NCBI GenBank assembly: GCA_965153355.1 | Contig: OZ231126.1 | Location: 35,154,001-35,218,000 of the forward strand | DNA: 64,000 bases | Origin: Flaccisagitta enflata | Lineage: Eukaryota | Direction of reading: 5' to 3' | Shown: piece by piece, positions 34,401 through 56,090 of the stretch | Position numbering within the stretch: position 1 is the stretch's first letter | Layout of the letters: each line of letters opens with the position of its first letter | The notes under the pieces: generated by a model | Database searches by the model: none | What the model was told of the DNA's origin: nothing | The model's input: the letters and a program-made list of their open reading frames with translations, nothing else | Translations under genes and position numbers: made by a program

Positions 34401-35694
34401 TCACAAAGCAGTTGAACGAAAAAGCCCCACCAAACCATAATCCTCATCATCTCCACAAGTTCCCCTTCCTCTACCACTTGCTCCCCTCGGTCCTCCTCTG
34501 ACTCCTCTGTTTCCCCCTCTATTCGCTCTGCCTCCTCTGTTTCCTCCTCTTGGTCTCCCTACTCTTCCACCTCTTACTCCGTTTCTTCTAGCCACAACTC
34601 TTTCCATTCTGTCTCTCTCCGACCTTGCCTCTCTTTCATTTCTCTCCGCTCTAAGGGCACTCATCACTACTTCCAAATTTCTCAATTGCTCCTCATGCCT
34701 CTCCCTCGCCCTCTCCATCTCCATATCCATGCTCTCGTCAGTCCTCAACTCCTGCGCCTCCTCATCCGCTGCAATCTCATTTGGCATCGTAGGATCGAAG
34801 GGATCATTACGCAACTGTTGTTGTCGCGTTAATGAATGGAATTAAATAACTTAAACTTAGTAAATATAACTAGATACAATCAAAGAGGCGTATAATCTAA
34901 GAGGCGTACAAACTAAGAGGCGTACAAACTAGGAGTATACAAACTAGATTAGGATAGTCTCGTTTGTAACAGGCCTTGTAACTAAAAGTGTACAAACTAG
35001 ATTATGGTTGCTTATGGAAAAAATAATTACCAAGGCCGCCATATTGATGCCCTCCGGCAGCTGCGGCAGCTCCCTATCGCGGCGGCGGGCAACAAAGCGG
35101 CGTGTAGCCGCACCGATCCCGACAAAGACGCCGAGAGCCAAAATTGTTACCGCGGACCCGATCCTTATGAGGATTTGAACCGAATCGCGATAAAGCAGAT
35201 ACAAGAACTTAATTCGCGATATTTGATTTAGAACTATGAAAATTTGCGGTTCGAATACATGATTTAACTTACAATGCGCTTTTCCAATCGACGGTTTGCG
35301 GGTGGGGAAGCGGAGAAGAGGATGACGCGATCGTAATGTCCGCCGCTTGTCCGACCGAATGCTCGTCCGATTGTCCATCGTTGATTGTAATGTCCGCCGT
35401 CTGTTCACGTTTATCCGATTGTTCGTAGCCGACCGTAACGTCCGTTGTCTGGCTGTTGTCCGATGAATCCTCGACGTTTGACGAGAAGGCGGAGGAAGAG
35501 GAAGAGGATGTTGTGGTGGAGGTAGAGGCGGAAGCGGCGCGGAATGAGGAAGAAGTGGTGGAGGCGGATAAGAGGGACGGGCGCGTGGGCGATGCCGCCG
35601 ACGAAGTTGATGAGGATGATGACGAAGATGTTGATGATGTGGTTTGTTGTTGTTTTGTCTTGTTTTTCTTTTGTTTGTGTTTTGAAACCAGTGT

Positions 35695-35736
<42 letters not shown>

Positions 35737-35994
35737 TTGTTCCCGTTGTTTGTCTTCTTGTTGTTTTTGTTGTTCTTTTTGTTGTTGTTTGGGTTCTTCT
35801 TTTTTTTGTTCTTCTTGTTCTTTTTGTTCTTGTTCTTTTTGTTCTTGTTCTTTACGTTGTTGTTTTTTGTGTTCTTCTTGTTCTTCTTGTTTCTTTTGTT
35901 CTTTTTGTTTTTTCTGTTGTTCTTGGTCGTCTTGTTGTTTTTGTTTTTGATCCGTTTTCTGTTTAAATTCTTGTTGTTCTTGTTGTTGTTGTTG
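34401..35994 (-). CDS. Putative spliced single-pass membrane protein (Q/E/K-rich and S/T-rich region, TM helix, charged and RGG-rich tail); 5' end unresolved
   Basis: Stop-free frame 35994-35273, then GTAAGT...AG intron 35272-35164, exon 35163-35031, GTAATT...CAG intron 35030-34815, exon 34814-34401. Joins read VDWKSAL|IGSAVTILALGVFVGIGAATRR...NMAAL|LRNDPF...RGGRVGRPRGGNRGG. Confidence 0.55.
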
Positions 35995-36322
35995 TTAGTA
36001 GTAAGTCTTCTGGTCTTAGGAGTCGAAATTTATAGCTGGACACTATGACGTCATCACTAAATCTAAGGGAAATACCTAGTGCTCCTACCTACAGCTCTCT
36101 TTATTTCTATAGTAAATTTGATTTAGCAGTACAAGTTCATAGCTTGAAATCCCTATAGAGTGGCCAGATTTCTATGCTGGTCAAGCTTTAACTTAAGATT
36201 ACGGCCATGTGAACGTTTCTCCGGCCAATCATAAGGTACAGTACAGTATTTACTATCTTCTACTATACTTTGTATAGCAAATGAAGCTGACCACAGGTTA
36301 GTAACAAAGAAATAAAGAGGGA

Positions 36323-36358
<36 letters not shown>

Positions 36359-36534
36359 AGAAAGAGAGAGAGAGAAAGAAAGAAAGAAAGGAAGAAAGAA
36401 AGAAGGAAAGAAAGAAAGAAAGAAAGAAAGGCGATGACCATTGAAAGATAGCAGGAGGATAGAAGAAGATAGAAAGAAGGATAGAAATGATGATGACCAT
36501 CCAAAATACTATAAGATAAGAAGTATTACTACTA

Positions 36535-36745
36535 TCGCCAAAATCACAGTCTGTACCATGAACTTGTACCTTCTGTGATTTGGGCTCCGGCTGCCAAAAT
36601 CATGGCCTGTACCATGAACTTGTACCTTCTGTGATTTGGGCTCCGGCTGCCAAAATCATAGCCCGTACCATGAACTTGTACCTTCTGTGATTCGGCTCTG
36701 GCTGCCAAAATCATAGCCCGTACCTAGTTCGTGTACTTTCTGACA
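36535..36745. repeat. ~56-bp tandem repeat, ~3.5 copies
   Basis: GCCAAAATCA...GTACCATGAACTTGTACCTTCTGTGATT repeated. Confidence 0.85.
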
Positions 36746-37649
36746 TTGGCCTTTTGTTTCTTCTTAGATGAAAAGGAGAAGTACTTGGTATAGAGCTGAG
36801 AAATTAGGAACGGCTGAGTTAAGGAAAGGGTTGAGGAGGAGATGCACAGATATAAGGAATGGTTAAAAAACCTTGAAAGGCTTATTGAAAAAGTAAATTT
36901 TGATATATGGATGCATAAGTATATTGGAATGGCAGGTTTAAGGTTTTTGAGGTTCTTCTCAGGTATTTTGGTATACCCTTTCAGGTTTTTGGTAGTCCAT
37001 TTTAGGTGTATTGAAGGTACGTTTTTGGTTGTTGTATGAGAAATTGGGTAAATTATAATGCCTGAAAAGGTTTTTTATTGTTACTTTAAAGGTTGTTTTG
37101 ATTGAAATTTTTTTAAAGAGAATTGTAAAGGCAAAATGAAGTTTTGAAATACAAAATGGCATAGTAAATGTGATATGAAAGGTAGGAAGATTAAAGGGAC
37201 ATAGTAAGGTACATTTATAGTATTGGTAAATTTGAAGATTTTGGTTTGAGCATTTTTGGTAACATTTATATGGTGCAAAATACGGTTAGTTACCTAATGG
37301 TTCTATAGTCAGTTGACGGCTAAGATGAAAGATAGACAATACAGGTTAGTTTGATCATGAGATAGAACAACATAGATAGAAAGACAGAGATAGAAAGAGC
37401 GAAAAGATAACAGAGATAGAAAGACAGACATAGAAAGACAGAAAACATGACATGAAAAAAATGGAGGAGGAAGAGGAGTGAGGAAGAGGAAGAGGAAGAG
37501 GAACAGGAAATAAAAAAAATATATGAAAGTTAATAGGAAGAGGAAGAGAAATGGAGGAAAAGAAAGATAGAAAAGAAATATAAGGAGGCGGAAGAGGAAG
37601 AGGAAAAGCATATATATATATAAGCATGATTTTACAATTTTTATTCATA

Positions 37650-38723
37650 ATGATGGCTGAATTAAATGAAAATTTTTATTCCACAAAAACTCATAAATAT
37701 CCTCCGTCAAGTTTTCTACTTTTACTGGGAAATAGTAATTGTGGTATGCAACAAAAAAATACTTTTTATAGCTAAAATAAGACTTCAGATTTGAGGCCAA
37801 TACCTAGTTCTTATACTTTTGATTGGAAAATATTTTTCAAAGAAATTTGAGGCCAATACCTAGTTCTAATACTTTTGATTGGAAAATATTTTTATAGAAA
37901 TAATTTAAGCCCAATACCCTGTTCTAATACTTTTGATTAAAAATATTTTTCTTAGAAATTTGAGGCCAATACCTTGTTCTAATACTTTTGATAATAACTC
38001 GTTAAAAGTATTTTTGTTGCATATTTAATTTATGGATAAAAAGGAAAGACTACATTTTTATTGGAGACAATTAAAGACCATGAAAATCATTTTGTGACCA
38101 AGCCAACAAAGGTCATTTATTTTTTTCGCGAGGAGTGTAGTGCTGTGACAGAATTGAGAAAGTTTTTTTCTGAAAAAAATGATATTAAAGGATTGTTCCT
38201 AAGAAAGATTCCAGAGACAAATTTTATCGAAAGTTTGGGAATTGAAAAAGGATCCACTTGTATAATTTTTGACGACTTTCATGTACAAGCTTTATCAAGT
38301 GAGCCACTGAGGGAAACTCTTTTGAACCTCAGTAGTGTGTGGAATCACCATTATCAAATTGTGACATTTTATGTGGCACAGCAATATGACATGTTCCTGA
38401 AGTCGTCCAAACTGAATGGCCTTTTGGTTAACTCAACCCATATTGTCCTGTGGAGATCCAATCACGACGTTAAAACTATCAAAAGAAATTTGGATCGATA
38501 TTTTGTTAAGCTTAAAGGAGATCTGACATTGTGGAAAATATTTGAACGCTATGTTCAAAGTGAACAATATAAGTTTTTACTGATTTGTGTTTCTCCTTTG
38601 TGTCGACGGCCTTCGGTTTGGATGAATACTTTAATGTCGTCAGATGATCAAGTTCTTTCCTTCCATGAGTCGGACTCAGAATCGGATGATCAGGGAGAGA
38701 TTGATAGTGTGCAAGTACAGTAA
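37650..38723 (+). CDS. A32/FtsK-like genome packaging ATPase, 2 exons (37650-37743, 38044-38723), ~257 aa
   Basis: Splicing out GTATGC...AAG (37744-38043) rebuilds Walker A LLLGNSNCG|KTT. Walker B CIIFDDF and the A32-type NHHYQIVTFYVAQQ segment follow. Confidence 0.9.
37787..37992. repeat. 55-bp tandem repeat in the ATPase intron
   Basis: AGAAATTTGAGGCCAATACCT.GTTCTAATACTTTTGATT..AAAATATTTT, ~4 copies. Confidence 0.9.
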
Positions 38724-38734
38724 GCAGTCAATCT

Positions 38735-39064
38735 ATGGCGTGTCGAAAAAAAAAGCATTTAAGATCATTCTTAGATGCTTGTGTCACTGACTCCTTGTTT
38801 ACTAAGGATTTGAAGACCAACGTTTTCGTTTGCATAATTGAAATTGTGAAAAATTGCATGAAATCAAAGCTGAAGCATTGTTTCTCATCAAAAACTTTGA
38901 AATACATTGCCAAAAACATAAAACTTTTGAAATTCTTAAAAAGTAAAAAAATTTCTTTAAAAAAACGAAAAAAGAGATTCTTACGGTGTTCAAAAAAGGA
39001 GCAAAAATTGTTTTACAATCATATTTTGTATGATTTTATAAACAACTGTTTAGAATGTGATTGA
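38735..39064 (+). CDS. Small basic conserved Polinton/adintovirus protein (109 aa)
   Basis: CIIEIVKNCMK...KLLKFLKSKKISLKKRKK resembles the ICExxxNxLxG...LRxLxxKKxSxKKKK pattern of the small basic ORF I recall beside the ATPase in Polintons. Its stop overlaps the next ATG (TGATG). Confidence 0.65.
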   Translation: MACRKKKHLRSFLDACVTDSLFTKDLKTNVFVCIIEIVKNCMKSKLKHCFSSKTLKYIAKNIKLLKFLKSKKISLKKRKKRFLRCSKKEQKLFYNHILYDFINNCLECD

Positions 39065-40317
39065 TGGGCGAAAAAAAAATGAGTTCTACTAATCCCACTA
39101 GTTATGTGAAATCTCCTTTTTTGAAGTCGGTTTTAGACGAGGAAGGGACTTCATGCGAGGAAAAGATTGAGAAGATTAAAGGCCTTGTTGAGGGGAAAAA
39201 ATTATCCCTTTTGAAAAGTGGACAAAGTGCAACAGGAAGTAGTCAGACAAACAGCAACAATGCCCCCAATGGAAATGCACCATTGAATTCTAACAATAAT
39301 GGTAATGTGCCATTGGCTCCTAGCAACGAATCTGATGCTGTTTTGAGCGGATTAAGTGGGAATAAAGAGCGTCAACTTGGTGAAACAATTTTGGATGAAA
39401 TAAATCGAAGTAACTTAATTGACTATGACAAAAATACTTTTGAGATCATAGTGCAATCTGAAGTGATAAAGTTCTCAAACATAAAAAATTTGATTTCATT
39501 TTGTGTGACGTCAAACGCAGCGCAAATCCCAATTGGCTGCACAATTTTTATTGAAGCTTTAATGCAAATAAAAGCCTCAATAGCATCTCTGAGGAGTGGG
39601 GACGCTCAAATTATCAAAGAGGATTTATTGAGAGTGCGCGCTTTGCATGAACAAGATAGTAATTCTATGAGGCCATCGTTACCTAATACCGACGGAGGTG
39701 CGGAGGCTGACAGCGGTGGAGGGGAAGCAACAATTGAAAGTGGCGCTGGAAGCGGAGTGGCTGACAGCGGCGTTGGTAGCGAAGGTGTATCCGTTGAATT
39801 ACCAAGAGAGGGTATTGACGCGGAGATAGGAGACGGTAATAGAAGAGGGAGGAAGAGAAAGGTGGCGTCTTCTAGTGAAGAGGAATTGGCACCGGCGAAG
39901 AGACGGTTTAACGTTCCAGAATCGGATTTGTCCAATCTGAGGAGGTATGGTAATGGGAGTATGACACGGGAATGTTAAATGACTGTTTGCCTGATTGTCT
40001 GCCTATATGCTTGCATGTAAGCTTGTTTTTAGGTCATGTGTTTGTATACATGTCTGACTGTTGATTGGTTGCCTTCTAGTAACGGATAAGCGACTTTATA
40101 AGGGGTCTTGTCCGTCCGTCGGTCCATTGGTCCGTCGGCCGGTGCACCGTTCCGTGTGATCGAGTCTGGAAGTATGAAAACGCGCATTTACGCCCCTGCC
40201 CACTTTGTTCCTGTTTTTGTTTTTAGGAGTCCGAGGCTCGTATCAAAAATTGAGGAAGCTTGGTCTACAGGGGTTGTGGATGAACCCGCGAAAGGAAGAA
40301 GGAAAAAGAAAAAATGA
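39064..40317 (+). CDS. Conserved Polinton protein of unknown function, 2 exons (39064-39944, 40227-40317), ~323 aa
   Basis: ILDEINRSNLIDYDKNTFEIIVQSEVIKFSNIKNLI...PIGCTIFIEAL matches the Polinton WNxxGELIxxGxxIxGSNIxDL...PxGxxxFxxAL pattern. A GTATGG...TTTTAG intron joins LRR|SPRL, and the spliced stop overlaps the integrase ATG (ATGA). Confidence 0.75.
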
Positions 40318-41492
40318 GATCAAAAGTACGACAATTATTGGATTCTGGTTTACGTGATAAAAGTTCTCCATTGTTTCTTTCAAAAAACAAAACTGAAATC
40401 AAGAAGTTTTTTGAATCAAGAGGATTTGATATTGATGAAAAGGAAATAGACCAATATTTGCAAGAAGAACGGTCTAATGGCATCCTTATTAGAAATGATT
40501 CTGAACGGAAAAAAAAGGAAATATCTCGGGCGATGGTTTTAGCCCCAAAGTTCTTTTCTTGGGTATTTTCAGATGTTTTACATTTAAGTAAGAGTCGTGA
40601 TTATGGGAAAGATAGTACCAAATACGTGGTACTAATTGTTGACAGTTTGAGTTTATTTTGTTATTTAGCTCCATTAAAATCAACTAAAGCTGATGATTTG
40701 ATTTCTGCATTCAAATCTGTTTTTTTGCGTAGTCCTTATTTACCAGAGCATTGTGAACGTTTGAGTGTTGATATGGGTATTGAGTATCTCGCTAAAAAAT
40801 CGCGTGCTTTTTTTTCTTCTCATGGTATTCGTTTGAATCCCATCCCACCTAAAAGATTGGACCGAAGGTCGTATGGTGCAAATTTTGCAGAGGTCATGAA
40901 TAGGTCTCTGAGATCGTACCTCGAAAAACTTCAATTCAATGATGAAATGGTGAAGTTGACATGGGCAGAAAAATTGTTAGCCATTGAAAATAGAATGAAC
41001 AAAAAGGCAAGAGCTGTTTTTAAAGGGCACAGTAGCGTTGATATGTTATCGCAGTCGCCAAAATATGTACAAATGCTAAAATATGATCGGCGCTTTGTAA
41101 GTAGAAAGTTTTTAAAGGAACACATGAAAAATCCTAAAAATATTGTACTGTTTTCTATTGTGAAAATTCAAAAATACAAGCCTAAAGAAGGTTTGGGGTA
41201 CAAGGAAAGCTATTCATCTTTTTCATCACAGTTTTACATTGTTTTGGAAAGACATGAGCACGATCATATTTTTTTCTTTACCCTTGGATCAGTGTTTTCG
41301 TTACAGCCTGTGTCTGATTCGAAATTCTCCTTTTATGAGTTGAAGGTGTTTAATGAGGTATCTTTGGCCAAAGCTCGTTATCTTAATTGTCTTGCAGAGC
41401 CACTTGAAAAAAAAAACATTGGGGATTATTCATATTTTAAAGTGAAAAATTGTGATAAGGTTTTCTATGCTTCAAAACATGCCTTTGATTAG
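40314..41492 (+). CDS. int: Retroviral-like (c-integrase) DDE integrase, intact, intronless, 392 aa
   Basis: WVFSDV...YVVLIVDSLSLFCYLAPLKSTK...LSVDMGIEY...AEVMNRSLR: canonical rve core with D, D and E residues. Confidence 0.93.
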   Translation: MRSKVRQLLDSGLRDKSSPLFLSKNKTEIKKFFESRGFDIDEKEIDQYLQEERSNGILIRNDSERKKKEISRAMVLAPKFFSWVFSDVLHLSKSRDYGKDSTKYVVLIVDSLSLFCYLAPLKSTKADDLISAFKSVFLRSPYLPEHCERLSVDMGIEYLAKKSRAFFSSHGIRLNPIPPKRLDRRSYGANFAEVMNRSLRSYLEKLQFNDEMVKLTWAEKLLAIENRMNKKARAVFKGHSSVDMLSQSPKYVQMLKYDRRFVSRKFLKEHMKNPKNIVLFSIVKIQKYKPKEGLGYKESYSSFSSQFYIVLERHEHDHIFFFTLGSVFSLQPVSDSKFSFYELKVFNEVSLAKARYLNCLAEPLEKKNIGDYSYFKVKNCDKVFYASKHAFD

Positions 41493-41598
41493 TACGGTTT
41501 AATTGTGTACAGATTACAATGAATGCTACTACAGGGAATTGGTCTGTTGGGCCTGTATGGGATGAGCCAACACTACTCTAAGTAGCTGGGTTACCACT

Positions 41599-41889
41599 GT
41601 GAATGGAGAAAGTAATCGATCAACGACATATGATTGGACGACTGTGGCACCTGAGATTGAATTGGAACTGAAATGGATTGAACCTTTGGCGATAGTGATG
41701 GATGGTTTTTTCGTGATGTTGGCCTTGCTGATGGTAGCTGTCTTCATTTTTGCGAAGTTGGCTGCATCTGCCCGACTGAGATGGGGTAGAAGATTTGAAG
41801 TTGATATGCGCATTGGAACTGTGCGAATGGCAGGAGGGCGGCCTGTGGAAATAAATGAAAGAAACGTTGCCCTGAGGAATATGGTTTGA
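41599..41889 (+). CDS. Small putative membrane protein (96 aa, GTG start uncertain)
   Basis: Hydrophobic stretch GFFVMLALLMVAVFIFA followed by basic residues; sits tightly between the integrase and the penton-like gene. Confidence 0.5.
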   Translation: MNGESNRSTTYDWTTVAPEIELELKWIEPLAIVMDGFFVMLALLMVAVFIFAKLAASARLRWGRRFEVDMRIGTVRMAGGRPVEINERNVALRNMV

Positions 41890-41901
41890 AGAGAAAGAGA
41901 T

Positions 41902-43029
41902 ATGGAGACCTTGAAAGTGATAAGAGTGACGACAAAAGACAGGGGATGTTATGTGCGTGAGAAGTCTTCATTTCATGTAAATATGAATGGACTAAACTTA
42001 AATGTTAACGAGAAAGAAAAAACATTTGTGAAGATGGAACAATTGGTTATGCCTGAAAAAGTGAAAAAACTGAATTTCATCATGAACTTTGGGTATGATA
42101 CCAAGTTTCTGAAAAGGGAAGATACTCATGAATATGAAATTAAGTATGTGTCTCTGAACGATTTATGCCATCAAGTTAACACTCTTGTTTACAACAATTT
42201 CATAACAAAGACCGGCTGCATAGAGAATGTCAATTCGGGAAGCAACGATGTACCTTTGAATGCCAATGCCACCGAAGAGAATGCGACCATTGAGAATCCA
42301 GTCGATGAGAATGTGAACGAGAATGCAGGCGCGGATTCGGACGGGAATGCAGACGTTGCCGAGGGTACAGTGGTGATAGATGGAAATACAGACGTTGCCG
42401 AGAGTCCAGTGGTGATAACTGGTCCTCCACCTGTAAAAAGAAAAGACAATGGAAATGTAAATAAAGTAGATCCAAATTTTGTAAAATATTCACTACGACA
42501 AAAAATGAGTGCGACAAACTCCGTTGTTCCTGTGGAGAATATGTTTTGTTTAAAGTATGTAGATGGTAGAGTACAGATGAAAATGGCTGCTGGATTCATG
42601 TTTTTTGCTAGTGTTCATTTGTTGTTGGCTTTAGGATTTAGAAGTGAAGTGATGCGCACATTTACCAGTAGCGGGAAAACCGAGGCGGAAGTCATGAAAG
42701 AGAGTGATAATTTGACATTGAAAATTTGTAGTTGTTTCAATATAAGTGATATTGTACATTTTGTTGCCGATGAAGACAGAATATGTCATATTGGATTTAA
42801 GAAACTTATTGAGCCTACATTTTTTGTAGATGGAAATATGCATTCAATTCTTTGCTCATACGATATTGAAAAAAAAGTCGTTTTGTGCAATTTAAAGCGT
42901 TTGAATAATGTGTCATTTCGCGAAGTGCAGTTTTGCTTGTATAATAATTTGTTTGAGCCTTATGAATTGGGTGTTTGTGTGAAAAAATGTCCTATTTCAT
43001 TCAATTTGGTTATTTGTAAAAAATTGTAG
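41902..43029 (+). CDS. Probable minor capsid protein (penton, single jelly-roll) with acidic low-complexity insert, 375 aa
   Basis: N-terminal SSFHVNMNGLNL...FVKMEQLVMP and C-terminal LIEPTFFVDGNMHSIL...FREVQFCLYN...PISFNLVICK resemble the two halves of the Polinton penton. Confidence 0.6.
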   Translation: METLKVIRVTTKDRGCYVREKSSFHVNMNGLNLNVNEKEKTFVKMEQLVMPEKVKKLNFIMNFGYDTKFLKREDTHEYEIKYVSLNDLCHQVNTLVYNNFITKTGCIENVNSGSNDVPLNANATEENATIENPVDENVNENAGADSDGNADVAEGTVVIDGNTDVAESPVVITGPPPVKRKDNGNVNKVDPNFVKYSLRQKMSATNSVVPVENMFCLKYVDGRVQMKMAAGFMFFASVHLLLALGFRSEVMRTFTSSGKTEAEVMKESDNLTLKICSCFNISDIVHFVADEDRICHIGFKKLIEPTFFVDGNMHSILCSYDIEKKVVLCNLKRLNNVSFREVQFCLYNNLFEPYELGVCVKKCPISFNLVICKKL

Positions 43030-43036
43030 GGTTAAA

Positions 43037-43521
43037 ATGAGTATTACGGGTACTGCGCTGGAAGTAATTAAGAAGAGAATGCGTGGTGAGGAACGGGAAG
43101 AAATATCTACAAGTGTGGAAAATAAAACGGCGTGAAAACATATAATGAAGACGTTAAAAACATGAAGAAGGGAAAGAAAAGATCCGCCAAAGGGAAACCC
43201 AAAAAGAAAGATGAAAAAAAAGATGATAAAAGTGGAAAAAAAACAACCGAAAAAAAACAGAAAGTGGAAAGAAAGAAGACAGGAAGAAGAGGCGAGAAAA
43301 AGGACAAGAAGTCTGACAAGAAAAAGGGGAAAGAAAGGGAGAAAAGAAAAAAGTCACCAAAACCAAAGACTGAAAAAAAAAGAAAGAGACGGGATAGTGA
43401 CTCTAGTAGCTCCTCTAGTAGTTCCTCAAGTTCAAGCTCAAATATAAGTTTGAGTTCATATTCTAGTTTGAGTTCAAGTGGATCATCAATGTTGGAAGAT
43501 ACTGAAACAAAGGAATCATGA
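43037..43521 (+). CDS. Lys-rich basic protein with poly-Ser tail; -1 frameshift near 43125
   Basis: The ATG 43037 frame (MSITGTALEVIKKRMRGEE...) joins ORF 43132-43521 if one A is restored in the AAAA run. Confidence 0.5.
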
Positions 43522-43629
43522 CACTCTGTGAATGATGACACTCTGTTTATATTTGTATATGAATGTACATATTTGTATATGAATGCATGAAACTGTAAAT
43601 TACTTGGTTATTAGGTGTAGAAAGTAACT

Positions 43630-44505
43630 ATGGGTAGAGAGCACAATCATGCCCCGATATGTAGTCGGTCTACACCTCTATGCCGTCTTATGGAACTTTA
43701 TGCTGAGGGATATATGTTGAATGAAGAGGATGGACATGAATTAGTAAGACAGTTGTTTCAGCGTGTAAATGGTTTTAAAGAAGAGGAAATAAAAAGATAC
43801 AATTTGAATTCTCGAAAGCGTCAAAGTAACTTAAGATGTTATCATAACATAGAACCAACAGTTCCACCAACGGATTGGAAGGAGTATTTGGTGAAGCAAG
43901 AGAAACTGCGTGAAAAAAGAGAAGAGATGAAGAAAAGAAAACTTGATGACAAAGAATGTGAAGCGGCAAAAAAGAAACAGCGAATGTCGGAATCCACTAA
44001 CGGCAAACCGAACGGCGAAATGAGTGGCGAACGACAAACGACGAACGGTGAACGGGGAGCGACGAACGACGAAAGACAAACGGCGAACGGCGAAAGGGGA
44101 GCGGCGAATGGGGAACGACGAACGGGGAATGGACGGCGATGGGTGGCTGAAGAAGGGCGATGGGAATGGGCGTCGAATGACGAGGATGAGACGTCAAATG
44201 TCGATGGAGGAAGGATGAATGACAAAGAAACAAGGAACAAAATGAATGACTAAAACAATGAAAATGTCCAGGATGGAGTTAAGTGGGAAAGCATATCTCT
44301 TGACGATCTCGATAAAGTGTTGGCATCATTAGATAAAAACGTTTATGCATCACAAGAAGATTGGGACAAAAGTGTAAGAGACTGGGAGAAAATGATAAAT
44401 GGCGCTGCGAAATGCCTGCCAAAAAAAGATCAAAAGAAAAAGACAAATGAACAGAAAGGAAAAGAAGGAAATAATGACGATGGCGATATCATTGTAATTG
44501 ATTGA
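43630..44505 (+). pseudogene. Hypothetical protein (~290 aa) interrupted by one in-frame TAA at 44251-44253
   Basis: ORFs 43630-44253 and 44317-44505 are in the same frame and the 21 codons between them are open. Contains NGER-type repeats and a coiled-coil-like segment. Confidence 0.55.
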
Positions 44506-44613
44506 TTTAGTTTGGCATTGTATACAGCGTGTTATAATGAATTGAAATATCATATTTGTGCAGGTAACTTTGACAAAATTGAACCTTGAACACTGAACAT
44601 TAAACATTGAACT

Positions 44614-45159: not shown

Positions 45160-45236
45160 GACATAAGATGTTAAGATGTTAAGATGATTAAGGAAAGATT
45201 TACATGTGAATGAAATAAATTTGATGTGTTGTATAT

Positions 45237-45800: not shown

Positions 45801-46111
45801 GAACAACCTGTATTCCTTCTACAAGGAACAGAGCAAAAAAATCTGATTCATAGTGCTTTATGGGCATGTGTTTAAGTGCCCAAGTGCCCAAGTGCCCAAG
45901 TGCTAAAGAGCCCAAGTTTAAAAGTGCCCAAGTGGCCAAATGTTAAAATTTTGAAGTGCCCAAATGCCAAAGTGTTTAAATGCCTATATGTTTTTTAAAT
46001 GCCTTCATGTTTTTGAAATTCTAAAGAGATAAAGAAAGTAATTTTGCATGTGTTTTGATGTTATTTTTTTTAATTTTAAGTGCTGCTGTGACAAAGAAAA
46101 AAAAACTGAAA

Positions 46112-49089
46112 ATGGAAACTTTAGTGTCAGATTCAACTATTCAAATTTTGGATATATGTAAGCTATCCATCATCCCGGATTCCTTTGCTGGCATATATAG
46201 TGGATCAATTATTGATGTGGCACAGCAAATACGTTGAAAAATGCTACCACGGTATGAATATTGGTATTTGAGGGGGGGGGATATGAGATATGATAATGCA
46301 GTTGTAGATGGTTGGTACAGATAAATGGATCAATAGTTGCATATTCTTTTTTTTTGTATTTTCAGGTTACTTTCCAAATTCCCCCGAATGTTCCCTCCGA
46401 ACTGTATGGCAAAATGTCACATTTGATATTGACGGTGCATTTGAAAAAAACGGGTGGAAGTTATGAAAGTACAGACCAAATCAGTTGTGTCAACTTTCTT
46501 CCTTGTTTTTTATTCGAAACAATTAGAGTGTTAATTGGAGGAGATGAAGTAAGTATAGTGTGTATTGGTGGTGCTCATGCCCATGCCCACATCTATAGAA
46601 ATGCCCACGTTTGCATTTGTATATACCCATGCCCTGTATATACCCTTTGAAGTACATGCCCATGTCTCGTGCCAGTACCCATGTCTGTGCCCATTTGAGT
46701 GTTTAAGTTTATGCCCGTGCAATCGCCTGTGCCCGTGTCCATTACATGCCCGTGCCCGTGCCCCTGTCCGTGTTCGTGCCTGTGCCCAAGTACATGTTTG
46801 TGCTCATCCACAGATGTTTTGTTGGTGAATGATTGTGATTTTTGTTTGTACAGGTGTTTGAGGACGATCGCATAACAGATCATTTATTGTTTTTGCGTCT
46901 CATGCTGGAGTTCACTGAGCAAGAACGACAGACAGAATTCCATACTATGGCTTACCGAAAAGACACGGATGGTAACAGCGACTCATGTGAAACTGAACAA
47001 GACGGATTTTGTGTATGTAATTGTAAGTACTTTTTGGTATTTTGGGTATTTTTGGTATTTTCGGTATTGGTACCATTTTTTTGTCACATTGTAACAGTAA
47101 AGTTATATAGGATTTGTTACGCTAATTGACTCTAATAAATGTACTTTAGGCGGGCGCTGTTTTTGCAATCTCTTTTTTATCGATGGAATGGGATCTGGAC
47201 TTTGTGGTCTGAAGGATTATGATGCCATTGTCAAAGATGGGGTAAAACAAACTGCCGCACAAATAAAGGATACTTTACTCAAAAAAAAAAATTTCAACGA
47301 AGGTAAAAAAAGCCAATGAGAGAGAGGGGGATGAGAGTGTTTATTGAAGAGGGTTAGGGGGTAGGGGTAGGGGTAGGGGTAGGGGTAGGAAAAGATAATT
47401 ACATGTAGTAATAAATGTTATAACGTTTTAGGTCTTTACGAGCGATCAAAATTGATTCGCAAATGTGCTGAAACTGAGGGCATGGAATTTTGTGTCCCAC
47501 TGCGGCTGCTTAGCCGTTTTTTCGATTTAGGATTTCTGATACCTCAAAAAAGAATTGTAGGTCAGTGCAATGTATTTAGCCAACCGACCAACCGACCAAC
47601 TGACCAACCGACCGACACGGCCAGTCATAGATGCTTTTGTCGCACCTAAATTGTAATGCTTATTTAAAGAGGTCTCACTGGAGATGCACGGTGAAAGAAA
47701 GATTTTGATAAAGAACACGACAAATTCTGATAATTTTGAATTATCGCTTTTGAATGCTCGCGTGGCTCTACAATATTTCAAATTGGAAACAAATGTACGG
47801 ACAAGGTGAGTGTGGCGGCTACCCCAGATGCGTGTAGATGGGCAGGGGACTTAATTGAGGTCCACAGATCATTTTGGCAGGAGCAGTAAAGCCCAAAATC
47901 CCAAAACCCAAAAAAAAATAATAAAGTGTGACTGACGGACGGACGGATCAACGGACCAACGGACCTCCAAAGCGGGATGTAGAGTCACGCGTAACACGCG
48001 ACTAAAAAAATATGTGTTTGGTGGATTTTTATATATTTTTTCATTGATACTGTGTGGATTCATGGCATTTTTGTATTAATTTTACAGTTGGTACGATTTA
48101 ATAAATTCTGAGAGCATTCGTCGTGTCATTCCTGTCTCTCACATTAGGTATGTGCATGCAAGTAGACGGATGGACCAATTGACAGAGGGACAAGCTGATA
48201 GATGGACAGACAGGGTTGACCACAAACGGATCAGTTGTTAGAGTACAAGTAGTGTTGATGGTTCCTGTAAGTATGACAGTGAGATAGAGGGATTGACTGC
48301 TGACATGTATTGACACGTTTGCATACTTTTAGGCATTACACACTTCAGAAAGGATCGTCTCTGTACTTCCTTAACTCGGCGTGCTCATTCCAGCGTATCC
48401 CAGACTTGCTGGTGATTTTCTTTTCTGATGAGGTGAGTTTATAGGTTGAATTTGATATATTTTCACAGAAATTTGAGGCTAATACCTTGTTCTTATACTT
48501 TTGATTGAAAAATATTTTTATAGAAATTTAAGCCCAATACCTTGTTCTAATACTTTTGATTGAAAAATATTTTCATAGAAATTAAAGCCCAATACCTTGT
48601 TCTAATACTTTTGATTGAAAAATATTTTCATAGAAATGAATAAATGATTGTATCATACAGGAGAAATACCTTGGGAATTTCCAAAATCGCTTTGTGTATC
48701 ATCATGAGGACCTACAACAGATTGAGGTCTTCAAAAACGGCCAATTGGTGCCTCAACCCTCTTTCTTGAACAACATGGATCTTTCAAATGAAAATTCATT
48801 GGCTAATGACCATTGGTACCGTGAGTTACTTCGGAATTTCCCGAAAGCGGTCGACAGTATTTCCAGAGTGAAATTTCAAAAAGAGTTATATTTGTTTTGC
48901 TTCCCATTTGAATCCACTCCGAGGCATTTGATGAATTCAGATGATGGTTTGAATCTCATTTCCTCTGGAACTATTGATTTGCGGCTAAGATTCAAATCTA
49001 GCCTTACATCAAACAAGATTATTCAAATCGCTTCCTTCGAAAAATCACTGGTGCAATGTGATGCATCTGGGAATATCCTTGTTAATTGA
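46112..49089 (+). CDS. Double jelly-roll major capsid protein, 9 exons/8 introns, ~499 aa; 1-nt frameshift in exon 1 (~46229)
   Basis: Exons 46112-46251, 46366-46548, 46854-47022, 47150-47302, 47432-47560, 47670-47805, 48088-48147, 48333-48432, 48661-49089. All introns are GT-AG and phase-matched. The product has Polinton MCP motifs in order: VTFQIP, VNFLPCFLFETIRV, AYRKDT, NEGLYER, YTLQKG, GNFQNRFVY, GTIDLRLRF, VQCDASGNI. Confidence 0.9.
48467..48637. repeat. Same 55-bp tandem repeat in MCP intron 8
   Basis: Units start at 48467, 48522 and 48577. Confidence 0.9.
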
Positions 49090-49113
49090 ACGTTTATGAT
49101 AGAGAGAGAGATT

Positions 49114-49187
<74 letters not shown>

Positions 49188-49316
49188 CGTGTCACTTAGA
49201 TTGATATGCATCCCCCCATTTGCCTATGATTTGTAAAGCTGCATTGTGAATTTTGTACTGATAGTAGATGTATTGAAATTTGTTTTTGTGTAGTTTTGCT
49301 TTGCCAGTTACCTGAG

Positions 49317-49565
49317 ATGGCTAAGGCACGGAGAAATAAGAAAGGACAATTTGTGCGAGACGAAACTCTCCATGGAACGCGAAGGCGAAAGAGACGACGC
49401 AGACGACGAAAATCTCGAAGGTCGAAGCGAGGACGAAGGAGAAAACGTGGGCTTTTGTCGGCGACAAAGTCGAGAAGAAGAAGAAGGAGACGCCGGAGCT
49501 CTGGGTGCGATGGAATTCCGAGTCGTTTAGTAGTGATGGCCAAGAGAAGGCTGAAATCAAAGTAA
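49317..49565 (+). CDS. Protamine-like Arg-rich core protein (82 aa)
   Basis: MAKARRNKKGQFV...RRRKRRRRRRKSRRSKRGRRRKR; mixed Arg codons, so not a microsatellite artefact; lies directly after the MCP. Confidence 0.7.
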   Translation: MAKARRNKKGQFVRDETLHGTRRRKRRRRRRKSRRSKRGRRRKRGLLSATKSRRRRRRRRSSGCDGIPSRLVVMAKRRLKSK

Positions 49566-49569
49566 AATG

Positions 49570-50072
49570 ATTTTCTACTCTATAGGAAATCTTTTGGCGA
49601 CAATTCTATGTACGAAAGACGAAGAAAGTTCCGACGATTTGAGGGTTATTTATGAATAATAACTATTGCCATGAAAAGACAGAGACCATATTATCAGTTT
49701 AAATCATCAACTACTGCGCCCTGTCATGACTGCACCGTGCCAAAATGCAGTGTTTTACATTGGTTTGCTGTAATGAAAATTGTAAAAAAAAAATGATCTA
49801 TGCTATGGATCGTGATTTTAGCTGAATAATGAATGTTATTAATTAACTATTTGTTATAGAAAATTACAAAAAAAAAAATGGTCACACATTTAAAAGACAT
49901 TTATCAGTGGTACTGAAACTGCGGCAATCACCTGCTCTTGTCCTTTGCGTTGCATGGAATTGGAAAATGTAGGAGTGGAAATAGTGTCAGCGTGGCACCA
50001 CTGCCTCGAATGCGGAGAGTGACGTTTCCAGATAAACTCAAATTGAGAGGCCGAACTCAACACCAAAAATGA
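49570..50072 (+). pseudogene. Possible decayed adenain-type cysteine protease
   Basis: LHWFAVM (His codon 49758), IYAMD in a shifted frame, and YQWY*NCGNHLL (Cys codon 49920) give the H-D-Q-C order. That frame's stop overlaps the PolB ATG (ATGA). Several stops are present. Confidence 0.35.
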
Positions 50073-53000
50073 GTGGTCTAAGTTATGCTGAAATAAATAA
50101 TGCGATAGATAGGGATTTGGACAGTACTGTCGCTGGAAATGACTATTGTGATGAATTAAGAAGAGTTGTTGAAGCCAACTGGAACACTGTAAGAAATCAG
50201 ATCACGGTTAATCCCAACATGATGGTGAGCGAATTTAATTTTCGTCTGTCAAGTAATCGCCCGCTTAGTGATGCCCATGTCCGTAACTGGTGGCCGTCCC
50301 CTCTACATGTGTCAAACTACCTCATAGAATTTGTGAGAGGGGTTTTATACCACTATTATGTCAGATTAAGGAGATCAGTAAGAATTCAGTTTAGTCCAAA
50401 CATGGCGATTATCTCAACTACTGGAGGGCCTAGTAACTTCATTTGGGCTTCCCGCAGTAATTGGGGGATTTTAGGCCAATCCTATCTCATACATGACATT
50501 CAATCATTTAACCATTTCATTGATGTCATTCTCAAAAATGAGGATTTACATCAAGCCATGTTAGCAAGTTTATCGAGTTTAAGCAGTAAATATAGTGACG
50601 GCTTTTGGCCCCGCTTTCACTGACATTTCATCTAACAAGTGTGCCCTCCAAGATATTTGGCAACAATGGAAGATGTTTAAGTGAGCATAAATGTACCGAT
50701 GGTAGTTGTGACAGCAATGCATGTGTGTGGCTTGCATTAAGCAGTATTTTTGACGTGGACAAATGTGGAAATGCAAAAAGGATGAGTTCAGAAATGGGGA
50801 AAGGAAAAGGACAAGGGCAAAGAACAAAGTTAACAGAAAAATATGCAAAGTTAGGGAAAAAGTTTTTGGCATGGCTGAAAAAAAGAGGAAAGGAAAAGGA
50901 CATTCTTTCAGAGAAAATTGGTCATTTGGGATTACCAGAAAGATACTTAGGCGAATTGGAAAAATTCTTAGGTCATTCCATGATTTTGCTAAGTGAAAAA
51001 ACCATGAATATGAGAAAGGTTGCCAATGACACAGTATTAAAAACTACAAAATATCAAAGATACTTCTCTTCAAAGAATGTGTCAGACAGTGATTACGGGA
51101 ATTTCATTTATCTGTTAACCAAAAATGAAAACCACGTGCAGACAGTGCTAAACTTACAGAAATATTCTCGAAAATTTGTATGTTCAAAATGCACAAGGTG
51201 TTTTTCTCGTATAGAATGGTTAGAATATCATCAAAAGTTCAAAGTATGCGAAAAAAAACGCTTTGTTGCCGAGAAGCAAGTGAATTTTCCCTATTCCGCG
51301 GAAAAAATTGTGTCAGAAACGGTTGAATTTGAACATTTGAGCATTTGCAAGGATACCAAGTACACTCATTGCTTAATTAATGTTGAAAAGGACTCATCAG
51401 TGAGTTTGACGATGCAGATTGATTTGAAAGGCACTGATCAAATGTTGATGTCAAGGAGATTTGAAAGTTTAGGGGAATGTGCCTCATTCATCATGAAATT
51501 CGGAGCAAAATGTGCCATATGGGTCTTAGGAGAAAGATTAGTGTTGCACTTTGACTCACTACAAAAAATAGAAACAGCAGCAGTTATGAAAATTGCGACC
51601 CGGAAGCAATCGATAGGAGCAAATTGAAGCATCTGCAGATGGTTAAAACTGAAATTGTCAAATATTTGAGCAAATATGACATTTATTTGTCAGTTGGCCA
51701 GGAAGACCCCAAAATAGTGAGCAATTTTATGTTTGAATTGTTGTCAATGCTGAGCGATGGTCGAGAATGTGAAACCATACATGTCAAGTTCGATCAAAAT
51801 GTGCTACAATTTGTTGCTGTAGACCAATTTCCTCTGAATTTTATACTGTTAAATAAATTTGGAGCAACATTTCAAGGGAATATAGCGACTGCAGACATGT
51901 TGGCACATTTCAATGATACTGTGAGTTTGTTCAAAAGTGAATTTGGACTGAATATTGTGGGTCAAAGAAATTCAACTCAGATCGGTAGGCATTTAATGGC
52001 CAGTACATTAGATGAAGGCAGGAGAAACGCCCTGTTTTCCCCGCCCTTGGCTTTTTCTCATGAACTAGACGAAACATTTGTTTCATACGGAGTATTAAAT
52101 GCCAAAAAAGCATTTGTCATGATCAAGGATTTATGAAAGGAGCAATGAATGTGGATTTCGAAAAATTTTATGGCCATTTAGTATTGAAAAAAAATGCTAA
52201 TTGGATGTTGGTCGGACTGCCGCACATGTACGTGAGAAAAGGAACAACATATGTCACAAAACAGAGTCGAAAGCGTCACACATTTTCTAACATGATTTTA
52301 GGCGTTATAGAGTTTTGTTGAGACGCTCTGTTTTCTATATCTCACTTAAATGGTCAAGAAAATATGAGATATGGAATGCTATTCGATGCTATTCTCAAAA
52401 TCGAAGGGAACGAGGTGTTCTATGAAGCCGACGGGTGCATATGGCATAGTTGCCCAAAAATATGCCATTTAAGTGAAGCTAATGTGATGAAAGGTCACAA
52501 ACCGTACTGTGACGCATGCAAAAATGACGAAATGGTTGGCGATGGTAGCGCCCACTTGAAATTCTTAAAGCCTCGACTCTGGAAAATGAGAACAAATGAA
52601 CAAAGAGATTCGGTCCACGCTCTGAAGAAAAACGTTACCTATGATGAGGATTACAAAAACACGTTAGAGAAGGCGGCACTTATGTATAAAAGAAGCGGAA
52701 AAAGAATTGTAAGCGTATCCGAATGCCACGTGCTGCGTTTTTGGCATAAAAGTATTGGAGCATTTATGGACAGTCTAAAACTGCCATGTAAATTTGACTG
52801 TCGTGATATACAGTTATCAACACTTGTGGAGCAGATAACCATGCAAAATTTCCCTCTGCTAAGATATGGAGCATTGACTCATGATAAGGTGATAACTGCA
52901 ATCAAACATGGAGATTTGAATGGCTTTGTGAAATGCACCACAGTTGCAGGAGACAAAACAAGGCATAACTTAGGAGTTTTGAAACCTTTTTTTTACACAA

Positions 53001-53967
53001 AAGATGGTATTTCACAGACTAGTTATGACGTGGAGGACAAAATTGTCTCAACTCTGATTTTGAGGGAAATGCTAACCAATGGTTTAACCAGTGATTTCTC
53101 AATTACTGCTATCACTGAAATCATTGAATACCGCGTCTCAGCATCAAACCCCTTTCATACACTGGAGGCGCCAGTGTTCAACGCTTTTAAGAATTATAAG
53201 CAATGCACTGGGTTTATTCAAATACTCAAAGGAAGTTTGAATTCTGCTATTGGAGCGTTTGGCATATCTGGACACAAGCATAAAAATAGCTATCTAATGA
53301 ATGAAAACGATATAAAAAGCATACAGGATCTGCATAATCTCTCTCATGGCACTCAGGTCAATGCAGAGAAAAGACTTTTCCATTTTGCAAGTTCATCGAG
53401 AATTTGTAACCTTAAACAATTGCATATGGCCATAATATCAAATGGAATCTCGATATTTATGAACTTTTTTTTGACGTGGAATTTTTATTTTCTTGGAGAA
53501 GCAGTACGTTTTAACACCGATGGTTTTTTAACTATGTTTAACCGAGCTTTCACCCCAGAAACACTATGTTCTAGTACATTAACTAGTGTATTGCTAGATC
53601 ACCATTTAAAAGTAACTATGAATACAGAGGAAGCTAATAGGTATTTTAAATGGAAAAAAAAGTTTTTTATTGCTTTGGACGAGATTCGGATTTGACCATA
53701 TTTTAAGTCACCCTATTGTATACGTTAGTTAATGGTGATATGTTTAAACAACGTACGTGATGCATTAATTACATGTCTAATGGTCTTGATTTTCCTGTGA
53801 AATTGGAGTTTCTTGGAAATGTATCAGTCGTGACCTCAGTCAACAAACTGTCCGTATTCAATAGCTATAAAAATGAGTATTTCATAAAGTGCAGTGGTAG
53901 CACTGATGAGTTTTTGTCAAACATCCACATGTACAGTTATGATCAGTTGAATGAAAAACTCTGTTAA
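50069..53967 (+). pseudogene. polB: Protein-primed family B DNA polymerase with N-terminal terminal-protein region, Zn finger and Vsr-like insert; disrupted
   Basis: Six ORF pieces linked by four -1 shifts and in-frame TGAs. Motifs: VRIQFSPN...FIWAS, DSNACVWLAL, FVCSKC...YH, A: NVDFEKFY, Vsr-like FYEADGCIWHSCP, B: KGSLNSAIG, C: RFNTDGF, and C-terminal KLEF...IKCSG. Confidence 0.85.
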
Positions 53968-53974
53968 TTTAAAT

Positions 53975-54055
53975 CTATTTATTGATATTTATTTTATTTA
54001 TTGAAATTAGGTAAAGCGATTGTGACAATAATATAAACGAGCAAAGCAAAATAAA
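53975..54055. terminator. Convergent polyadenylation signals between polB and the helicase
   Basis: Several TTTATT (AATAAA on - strand) at ~53977-54002 and AATAAA on + at 54050-54055. Confidence 0.4.
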
Positions 54056-54294
54056 TGACAATGACACATTTTGGGCCAATGACAAAAGATTGTGTATTTG
54101 GGCCAACGACAAAAGAACAAAGGAAATGGATGAATAAAGTAACTAATGAGTCGTCGAGGGACTGCAATTGAGTCAATGTCAAGCTTGGAAGATGCAAAAG
54201 TTATCTTGTCCAGGGATAACCATGAAGAAGCTAAAACAGTGCCCAATAAGTCAATTTTTTGACTGTGTGTCGCCCGGGGTTACGGGATTTGATG

Positions 54295-55755
54295 TCAGGG
54301 CAGATCCTGGATCGTGTCTTGCCCGGGAATGACGGGATCCGGACGGTCATTTAAATTGAAGTGACGAAGCCAAAGCCCGACCCAGTGGGCAGGGGTGATT
54401 ACGATTGGCGCTGGCAAAATGTAGCTGTATAAGAGGAAAGGATAGGGGGGGGGGCGCTTAAATTGATAACAAATGATGCAGAAAAGAGGTCTCTTTTTAG
54501 TCGCGTACACGCGACTCGCCAACTAGCTATGTCCGTTGGTTGGTTGGTCCGTCGGTAAGCTTTAGTTGTAATTGATGTTATGAACGGTTTGCCTCTTTTA
54601 TTACTGTCCCTGCCCACCACATGCGACTTCAGTAGCCGTGTAGTCTAAAATAATTACCTGAAAGGCCGGTTTGGGGGTATTTCGTATTTTGTCTTGAGCC
54701 GTGCAATTTGTTGAGGGGTCGCGGCCTCGATTTGCTCCTTAGTTTCCGTGACCACGGGGGTGGACATTTGGAACTCGAAACATCTGTAAAGTAATGCGGG
54801 GTGACATTTGGTACAGGTCAATGAGTAAGGGAGACTGTATATGAAATGCATATAAGTGCCATCCGTTTAATTTGTCCATCCGTCCGTCTGAATGTGTGAC
54901 GTAACTTCTATTGTGCATATTATGAAATAATTACCTTGAACGCAAAGCGTTGAGGTTTCTTTGGTCCCCTGCGGGCACGTAGGCACTTAATTCGTCAGTG
55001 GATGTCACCCAAATGCGGTAGGGGGTGGTTCTCATCGACGCCGATTTCCCTTTTTTGTTTATTACCGTGGGAGAACCTTCAAACATGAGCTTGAGCTAAG
55101 AAATCGGCAAAAAACCTGTCTTGAGCTCCTAAGGGAAGGGACGCGGGGTTACATTTATAATTACATGGGCATGGGCAATGGTAGTAATGATTTTTGATTA
55201 CGGACATGCGACTGTATATTTTACCATGTTGGTTGTTAGGGTTGTGAGTCTGTCCGTAGCATAAGATTTGAAAGCATAAGCAGAAGCATAAAGCATGAGT
55301 AACAGCTAATGTTTAAGGCTAAGGCTAAGGCTAAGGCTAAGAGCTAATAGTAAAAAAAAGAAAAGCAATAAACTAACCTCGGCAAAGACGATATGACATT
55401 AGTCATTCAGTCACATGAAAAAGTTCGCTGAAAATAAAAGAAGAAAAAAATTGTATAGGAACCTGGGATTAACGACATGATGGGCAGGGGTGGGTACGGC
55501 ACAATGGGCAGGGGAGGGTACTTCAATTTGAGAATATGTGAAGATTTGATTGATCAATAACTCACCTTTCATGATTTGGATAACAAAGATAAATGCTCTC
55601 AAGGAGACATTTGCTGAGGAAGCTTTTCTATAGGGAAATGGATGGGCAGGGGCAGTGATATGGATGGGTTGGAATGAAAGAAAAAAAATCAGGGAAAAAA
55701 ATAATTATGAACGTGTACTTAGGTTTTATTTCTTCTATTTTGCCTTTTTTCTTGT

Positions 55756-55807
<52 letters not shown>

Positions 55808-56090
55808 TATTTCTACATCATGTATTTGTTTGTTTGTTTTATGTTTGTTTGTTTGTTTGTTTGTTTTTCATACCCCAGAATTGGAACTCCCATAGAAGAA
55901 CGCGCGGGTTATTGAGTCGCGTGCACGCGACTAAAAACAACAAAAAATATCGGATTCAACAAGATTCTTAGCGCATGACCTACAGGCTACAGATGTATCT
56001 ACGTTGCTCCTTACCTTTTTGCCTCATGTCAGTCGTCTTTAGTTGCAGAAACACGTCTCAATCTTGAAGGCCATTATTTCTGATGTTCGT
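54295..56090 (-). pseudogene. Spliced superfamily 3 helicase, parvoviral NS1-like; nonsense-disrupted
   Basis: Exons (56090-56015 tentative), 55930-55874, 55627-55566, 55427-55378, 55128-54935, 54783-54658, 54424-54295, with GT-AG introns. Rebuilds Walker A FFYGSSNSG|KS, Walker B HIVFAE|EL, B' LKLMFEGSPTVINKKG, motif C RIWVTS and ALRS|RCFEF. Three stops and one frameshift in the core. Confidence 0.75.

Follow-up and report, generated by a model that had tools for sequence, protein, structure and literature searches.

Polinton/Maverick elements are usually found, and judged "intact", through long single open reading frames (ORFs). What, then, should be made of an element whose capsid gene is open only in short pieces: are these pieces exons, or the remains of a gene that is falling apart? 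This question is raised by a stretch of 64,000 nucleotides (nt) from the repeat-rich genome of Flaccisagitta enflata, a planktonic eukaryote of the sea (contig OZ231126.1; the whole stretch is called the window from here on), in which a Polinton/Maverick-like element of about 16 kb lies at 37,650-53,967 on the forward strand. Judged from its sequence, this is likely an integrated copy of a Polinton/Maverick-like lineage that has eight spliceosomal-type introns in the major capsid protein (MCP) gene and one in the ATPase gene, all of them inherited, together with polymerase and integrase genes that are single ORFs.

The MCP gene carries most of the argument. Its parts are the following.

46112-49089, forward strand: MCP gene, nine exons and then the stop codon TGA, with eight GT-AG introns
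46112-46216, 46366-46548, 46854-47022, 47150-47302, 47432-47556, 47672-47805, 48088-48147, 48333-48432, 48661-49086, forward strand: MCP exons 1 to 9
46217-46365, 46549-46853, 47023-47149, 47303-47431, 47557-47671, 47806-48087, 48148-48332, 48433-48660, forward strand: MCP introns 1 to 8

Together the exons amount to 1455 nt (485 codons) without a stop or a frameshift, and every one of the introns (149, 305, 127, 129, 115, 282, 185, and 228 nt, in order) would end the frame. The last exon, a 149-amino-acid (aa) open frame, has 49 relatives among 1.84 billion representatives. Full-length, intron-less homologues exist as single ORFs, namely P0050 (513 aa) and P0054 (508 aa), and several other relatives of 300-350 aa span the C-terminal two thirds. 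Placed on the window with tblastn, the homologues fall into eight collinear blocks, exons 2-9, which lie 115-305 nt apart. For each of the eight gaps there is a canonical GT-AG pair that keeps the frame and leaves zero-gap collinearity with P0050/P0054 and P0012/P0013, and the junctions rebuild a CxCxCGxCxC motif as well as stretches that are uninterrupted in P0012, P0013, and P0050. In an alignment made with MAFFT, exons 3-9 tile end to end; exons 1 and 2 are misplaced there, and exon 2 was placed by tblastn. The eight MCP introns that an earlier, sequence-only reading of this DNA had proposed are hence borne out by their GT-AG ends, the preserved frame, and the gap-free collinearity with intron-less homologues.

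The other gene with a confirmed intron encodes the ATPase.

37650-37743, forward strand: ATPase exon 1, from the ATG at 37650 to the first half of Walker A
37744-38043, forward strand: ATPase intron, 300 nt, GTATGC..AAAAG, phase 1, with a 56-nt tandem repeat at 37789-37992
38044-38723, forward strand: ATPase exon 2, the rest of Walker A, Walker B (IIFDD), and the stop codon TAA

Three GT-AG pairs are compatible with the frame, and only 37744-38043 rebuilds the GxxxxGKT P-loop. The single intron claimed for this gene therefore stands, since the splice restores the Walker A loop. Walker B is conserved. All eight relatives of the ATPase (40-91% identity) come without the Walker A exon and start after it. 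No profile in Pfam, PHROGs, or PDB matched the protein; by its two Walker motifs, the gene at 37650-38723 looks like a packaging ATPase, a candidate for the FtsK/HerA type.

Could such ends have come about by chance? All nine confirmed intervening sequences (one in the ATPase gene, eight in the MCP gene) are GT-AG, and seven of the nine donors read GT[AG]NGT or GTATG. As a control, random segments of the same lengths were drawn from the window in 200,000 trials and scored for a GT start and an AG end. The rate was 0.35% for exact ends and 4.4% when both ends were allowed to slide jointly by up to 6 nt in either direction. At 4.4% per segment, nine of nine would be GT-AG by chance with a probability of at most 6e-13. 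In the whole 64-kb window Rfam gave no match at gathering score, and hence no self-splicing group I or group II intron family. On this sequence evidence and that of the sister copies, the capsid gene is truly split by introns.

The sister copies also speak to the age of the introns. Their positions were compared across copies, as the sequence-only reading had proposed, and they are common to close copies at the borders of exon 2 and exon 9. Relatives of exon 2, collected with the exon 2 frame as query, are identical at 61 of 61 (P0111), 53 of 61 (P0112), and 50 of 61 (P0113) residues. In P0113, the similarity stops within at most four residues of both predicted exon borders, and intron 2 is apparently only about 130 nt long (as read from the read-through ORF) compared with 305 nt in the window. 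In P0112, the similarity continues some way into both introns beside exon 2. For exon 9, P0011 is identical at 122 of 142 residues, and its upstream frame is unrelated. Intron positions are thus shared by sister ORFs at 82-100% exon identity, and the intron sequences differ. Shared exon borders mean that the introns predate the split of the close copies, and that they vary in the wider family. Distant MCP relatives (P0012 and others, 30-40% identity) are uninterrupted at the positions of introns 3-8, and P0023, P0108, and P0110 have about 35 extra in-frame residues without homology inside their equivalent of exon 9, which may be a further intron. Because positions are shared by sister copies, and because the introns drift in sequence and in length where the exons keep their sequence, we regard the introns as features of the lineage and not as private damage.

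This lineage is not confined to one locus. Several diverged sister lineages of ATPase, MCP, and polymerase are found on many contigs and recur in marine metagenome assemblies. The stretch itself is present in DNA runs of the source organism and in marine metagenomes of nine studies; an independent DNA metagenome (X2, records 18-23) shows the same arrangement, introns included, apart from some indels and differences of about 0.3-2.6%. Among the viral contigs of IMG/VR and the metagenome contigs of JGI no relatives of the element were found. The intron-less 513-aa MCP lineage (P0050, P0060, P0061) was seen on as many as 30 contigs, with lengths up to about 17.7 kb; possibly these are the complete genomes of a virus that is free but related to the element.

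What kind of protein does the split gene encode? An AlphaFold model of the homologue P0050, built with 21 family members (pLDDT 63, pTM 0.61), matches double-jelly-roll capsid proteins only, with E-values between 3.5e-12 and 1e-6 in the PDB. The top matches there are the capsids of Sputnik (3j26_A, E 3.5e-12) and mavirus (6g43, 2.4e-11), and Singapore grouper iridovirus and PBCV-1 also appear; in BFVD the model matches a bracovirus-borne protein, adomavirus LO7, an adintovirus capsid, and virophage MCPs. By proxy of the collinear P0050, the MCP of the window is predicted to be a double-jelly-roll capsid protein. The MCP family has this fold in common with adomavirus LO7, adintovirus, and virophage capsids at TM-scores of about 0.45-0.5, but sequence identity to them is only 9-15% and the lineage of the window is known only as an integrated element.

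Two more genes belong to the core of the element, and in neither did we find an intron.

40314-41492, forward strand: integrase-like gene of the rve type, single ORF, with D97/D163/E203 (ORF numbering, read by eye)
50069-53967, forward strand: polymerase-like gene, probably a protein-primed family B DNA polymerase (pPolB), 3.9 kb, no introns, four frame changes and two in-frame TGA codons

The integrase matches PF00665 of Pfam with an E-value of 9e-5 and 23.1 bits, which is under the curated cut-off of 32.6 bits, and it had no match in the PDB. The polymerase gene is of more interest here, since the sequence-only reading had taken it for a superfamily 3 (SF3) helicase with at least four introns. 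Its 457-aa ORF found one cluster, P0010, at 75% identity, and a member of this cluster, P0081, is an uninterrupted sister ORF of 1,291 aa. Compared with P0081, the window falls into five abutting pieces (query 1-179, 179-495, 485-676, 669-1196, and 1207-1288) in frames 2, 1, 3, 2, and 1, with no intervening DNA. The frame changes lie at about 50603, 51560-51580, 52105, and 53680-53715, the in-frame TGA codons at 52319-52321 and about 53758. The breaks are hence frameshifts and stops in a gene that is collinear with an uninterrupted ORF, and the proposed introns have to be given up. Two of the four frame changes sit at A-runs, so that an assembly error is possible for these two. One candidate intron (GTAAAT..CAG at about 50586-50793) is ruled out because the sister ORF is homologous across the stretch.

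The helicase identity does not hold either. No helicase family in Pfam or PHROGs matches the window ORFs, P0010, or P0081, and the look-alikes of P0010 in the Atlas are DNA polymerases. In an Atlas feature search with P0010, 25 of 30 matches are clusters of PF03175 (protein-primed polymerase); the best scores 0.93 with 168 shared features, just under the mark of 170. Neither the window ORFs nor the sister proteins of the polymerase have a match in Pfam, PHROGs, or PDB, and an AlphaFold model (pLDDT 29.7) was unusable. Motifs that resemble what we take to be Pol A, B, C, and KxY can be found by eye. The gene at 50069-53967 probably encodes a pPolB, as far as these sequence features go. Both in-frame TGA codons lie opposite a Cys in P0010 and P0081. 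One could argue that the gene follows an alternative code in which TGA means Cys (table 10), but this code does not merge the frames in general, and the MCP gene itself ends in TGA. The coincidence with Cys is probably due to chance.

A membrane protein with two introns had also been proposed; its hydrophobic ORF (55634-55912) is only a (TTCT)15 microsatellite in translation. From a claimed total of at least 16 introns in five genes there remain nine, eight in the MCP gene and one in the ATPase gene, and those of the polymerase (at least four) and of the membrane protein (two) are lost; the one intron that had been claimed in a conserved ORF could not be located. A host-like exon-intron architecture can be upheld for MCP and ATPase only; the genes of the polymerase (3.9 kb) and of the integrase (1.2 kb) are free of introns. 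This calls for caution: at least one in three of the "introns" that had been picked out by eye turned out to be a frameshift or a stop codon in a gene that is decaying.

Repeats inside the introns have to be considered as well. Besides the tandem repeat in the ATPase intron, two stand out.

47816-48015, forward strand: dispersed repeat resembling a short interspersed nuclear element (SINE), its core (GGAC)n and its tail A-rich, which takes up positions 11-210 of MCP intron 6
48455-48640, forward strand: 55-nt tandem repeat in MCP intron 8; its identity with that of the ATPase intron is about 90%

The SINE-like repeat of intron 6 has at least six other partial copies in the window, all in the flanks. 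These copies of a repeat of about 200 nt lie at 22649-22839, 59038-59171, and 59291-59483 and, on the reverse strand, at 24593-24713, 9282-9358, and 54494-54556. MCP intron 5 has pieces in common with the same flank loci; in intron 7, a SINE-like element was seen by eye in translations only. The number of tandem-repeat copies varies between runs (joints skipping 133 and 55 nt). The repeat content fits repeats that landed in pre-existing introns, although an introner-type origin of the introns is also possible. In P0046, a distant relative of the MCP, the N-terminus is a read-through of a SINE-like repeat of this kind, which hints that diverged lineages of the element share a host or related hosts. 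Three bins in or beside the element (39935-40601, 45271-45937, and 55276-55942) have a 15- to 30-fold higher summed depth in metagenome runs; they are high-copy repeats.

Taken together, inherited introns would work as follows. Active copies would be transcribed in the nucleus by the host polymerase, and the capsid and ATPase mRNAs would need the host spliceosome. The introns would travel with each new copy because the element would copy as DNA. Host repeats, namely the SINE-like element and the 55-nt satellite, would later have enlarged several of the introns.

A number of observations weigh against this explanation, and most of them concern RNA. Reads of four runs were placed on 36,600-56,599. 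No GT-AG joints were found in these four runs, and the only joints are changes in tandem-repeat copy number. The RNA-seq junction reads that the sequence-only reading had suggested looking for are thus missing from the four runs. One of these is X24, a poly(A) run from the same organism, which was read to about 6%; this portion gave seven partial reads on 20 kb. Contigs from two RNA libraries (the metatranscriptomes X12 and X17) cross four predicted splice sites, and all of them are unspliced: the ATPase acceptor is spanned by X12 record 1 and the acceptor of MCP intron 8 by X17 record 13, and X17 record 12 runs past MCP exon 2 at both of its ends. The depth of these contigs is low (3-10) and spread evenly over exons, introns, and spacers, and hence DNA carry-over is possible. 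With no junction reads and hardly any reads from X24, splicing is a prediction from the sequence, and the copy looks silent in the sampled poly(A) RNA.

The remaining points concern the gene models and the identity of the element. MCP exon 1 and the donor of intron 1 are predictions that no homologue supports. The divergence of exons and introns was compared only through read-through ORFs of metagenome contigs, and the fold evidence comes from a homologue at 23-36% identity and not from the MCP of the window. ATPase, polymerase, and integrase have no match above any curated cut-off in Pfam, PHROGs, or, by sequence, the PDB. The search for terminal inverted repeats (TIRs) turned up nothing beyond pairs of low-complexity (TTG)n/(CAA)n, and in blastn the left side (30-38 kb) had no match on the right side (53.9-62 kb); TIRs and target duplications were thus not found. 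No ORF of the window matched an adenain-like cysteine protease or a penton (minor capsid) protein. What had been called a Polinton/adintovirus-like virus is hence upheld in its gene content and the fold of its MCP family, and not in TIRs, protease, or penton. The Polinton-like identity is nevertheless supported by the gene content: a double-jelly-roll MCP, a P-loop ATPase, an rve-like integrase, and a large polymerase-like gene.

How else could split capsid and ATPase genes be explained? One could argue that the intervening sequences were inserted after integration, as host repeats, into a dead family of elements, and were never removed from RNA. This would agree with the unspliced RNA-library contigs and the missing junction reads, with the visible decay of the copy in the window, and with the fact that five of the nine introns hold host repeats (SINE-like repeats in MCP introns 5, 6, and 7, the last by eye only, and the satellite in the ATPase intron and MCP intron 8). 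But the repeats lie within the introns and the splice sites outside of them (in intron 6, 10 nt before and 72 nt after the repeat), and each of the nine has exact GT-AG ends whose joining brings back the frame and the collinearity without gaps. Moreover, the exons are free of stops and the neighboring polymerase is not, and positions are common to copies down to 82% exon identity with differing intron sequence. We therefore think that insertion alone is very unlikely. The introns could instead owe their existence to a mobile element of the introner type, which would have entered the provirus once this was integrated and for which the dinoflagellate Maverick-like proviruses are a precedent in the excerpted text of PMC12166617. 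Two introns in different genes do share the 55-56-nt tandem repeat, which occurs nowhere else in the 64 kb, and at three of the nine introns both flanks read AG|GT or TAG|G. However, the two introns with the shared repeat differ at their ends, the other introns share no common family, and the SINE-like repeat does not carry the splice sites, which makes this origin improbable. Since it concerns only where the introns came from, it could hold alongside inherited introns.

A different possibility is that the capsid and ATPase genes are remnants of a Maverick that the host has domesticated, ordinary host genes that gained introns, and that the replication module is decaying. All confirmed introns do lie in morphogenesis genes, no TIRs were found, and the polymerase has six disruptions in 3.9 kb compared with none in MCP, ATPase, and integrase (3.4 kb together). 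The integrase, however, is likewise intact, and a sister copy has an uninterrupted polymerase ORF of 1,291 aa. Diverged lineages of ATPase, MCP, and polymerase on many contigs suit a multi-copy element better than a single host gene, and the genes are not expressed in the poly(A) run. Domestication is hence quite improbable in our view. Inherited introns in a Polinton/Maverick-like lineage remain the likely explanation for the locus.

For the copy in the window itself, the gene order is ATPase, two ORFs without assignment, integrase, a 379-aa ORF, a lysine-rich ORF, three further ORFs without assignment, MCP, an arginine-rich ORF, and polymerase. No host gene could be recognised among the genes at 37,650-53,967. 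The genes not yet described, and the region to the right, are listed below.

38708-39978, forward strand: two ORFs of 118 aa and 305 aa, no family match
41902-43029, forward strand: ORF of 375 aa from the first ATG (379 aa from stop to stop, 41890-43026), a minor-capsid candidate by position only
43126-43521, forward strand: lysine-rich ORF, no family match
43621-44505, forward strand: single frame split by an in-frame stop at 44251-44253; the stop site varies in metagenome contig X2
44611-45800, forward strand: two ORFs of 182 aa and 191 aa, no assigned function
49230-49565, forward strand: arginine-rich ORF (runs of R), no family match
53968-56090: no recognisable gene; SINE-like fragment at 54494-54556 and (TTCT)15 microsatellite at 55755-55814

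The 379-aa ORF had no usable match in Pfam, PHROGs, or the Atlas. The arginine-rich and the lysine-rich ORF flank the capsid region and may encode DNA-condensing core proteins. The copy is decaying: its polymerase is broken at six places, one other frame has a stop, and no terminal repeats were found. On either side of the genes, the outer parts of the stretch that had been assigned to the virus (34401-37649 and 53968-56090) contain low-complexity DNA and repeats only. The wider flanks (1-37 kb and 54-64 kb) consist mostly of microsatellites ((CT)n, (GT)n, (TTCC)n, (CAA)n, etc.) and of tandem and dispersed repeats, without a recognisable host gene, and a tRNA scan of the window was empty. At 53982, 15 nt past the polymerase stop, contigs of both RNA libraries depart from the window with an identical continuation of 30 nt. 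The departure could reflect another copy or allele whose neighbor on the right differs, or the true end of the element. The GC content of the window (about 40%) and its canonical GT-AG sites do not suggest a dinoflagellate host.

How unusual would such an element be? According to the excerpted text of Barreat and Katzourakis (2021, PMC8097293), intact vertebrate Mavericks are intron-less and have TIRs and 6-bp target duplications; the same excerpt conveys the statement of Kapitonov and Jurka (2006) of "no introns". The element in the window resembles the animal Maverick/Polinton described there in its size of about 16 kb, in its double-jelly-roll MCP, P-loop ATPase, rve-type integrase, and large polymerase-like gene, in its integration into a eukaryotic genome, and in the degradation of most copies by stops and frameshifts. 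It differs by its eight MCP introns and one ATPase intron, the lack of detected TIRs, the location of all genes on one strand, the lack of a recognised protease or penton, and by proteins that are too diverged for Pfam.

Introns in mobile DNA are not new in themselves. In dinoflagellates, introners are present in Maverick-Polinton-like proviruses, and about 25% of these introners lie inside coding regions (Gozashti and Corbett-Detig 2025, PMC12166617/PMC11957031, in excerpt). As far as the excerpt of PMC12166617 describes them, these proviruses are likewise integrated and Maverick-like, occur in marine eukaryotes, and have host-type introns, some in coding regions, with repeat-derived content; but their introns belong to catalogued high-copy introner families, whereas those of the window are concentrated in one gene. 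This precedent lowers our claim to novelty. Spliceosomal introns, of 176 bp on average, are present in 61 genes of Punuivirus, a giant virus that is endogenous in Chlamydomonas (bioRxiv 10.64898/2026.10.09.758095, in its excerpted parts). It is similarly an integrated DNA virus with canonical GT-AG introns of the host type, and the introns in the window have 115-305 nt. In Punuivirus, however, introns mark latency genes, the virion genes are mostly intron-free, and the MCP gene has a group I intron, whereas here the capsid gene is rich in introns; and splicing is backed by RNA-seq there, whereas the introns in the window are known from sequence alone. Ginger1 DNA transposons, in the excerpted description of Bao et al. 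(2010, PMC2836005), have integrase-like transposase genes with one to four GT-AG introns. Like the element in the window they are mobile, copy as DNA and have canonical introns, which spread with the element, but they move by cut and paste, have no capsid genes, and have far fewer introns per gene. Gaps in an Oxyrrhis Polinton-like virus (PLV) were judged not to be introns in the excerpted part of PMC12721341. In the literature that we searched, we met no Polinton capsid gene in which many conserved introns interrupt the coding sequence. Since its capsid is divided into nine short exons and none of its proteins reaches a curated Pfam cut-off, such a lineage would be invisible to virus detection based on ORFs.

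A further-reaching idea is that a Maverick/Polinton lineage has turned its virion module alone into host-style split genes, with eight introns within the 1.46 kb that code for the capsid, compared with none over the 5 kb of polymerase and integrase. We find this doubtful. If it were true, capsid production would depend on host splicing and could be gated by it. The introns might raise expression, allow nuclear export, or evade defences that silence intron-less transcripts of mobile elements. An element that copies as DNA would then carry repeat-seeded introns between genomes and be a natural vehicle for the spread of introns.

Splicing of the introns would mean that a virus-like element can reside in the nucleus long enough to adopt the gene architecture of its host in its structural genes, and it would carry the link that has been published for Maverick-like proviruses and intron-generating repeats beyond dinoflagellates.

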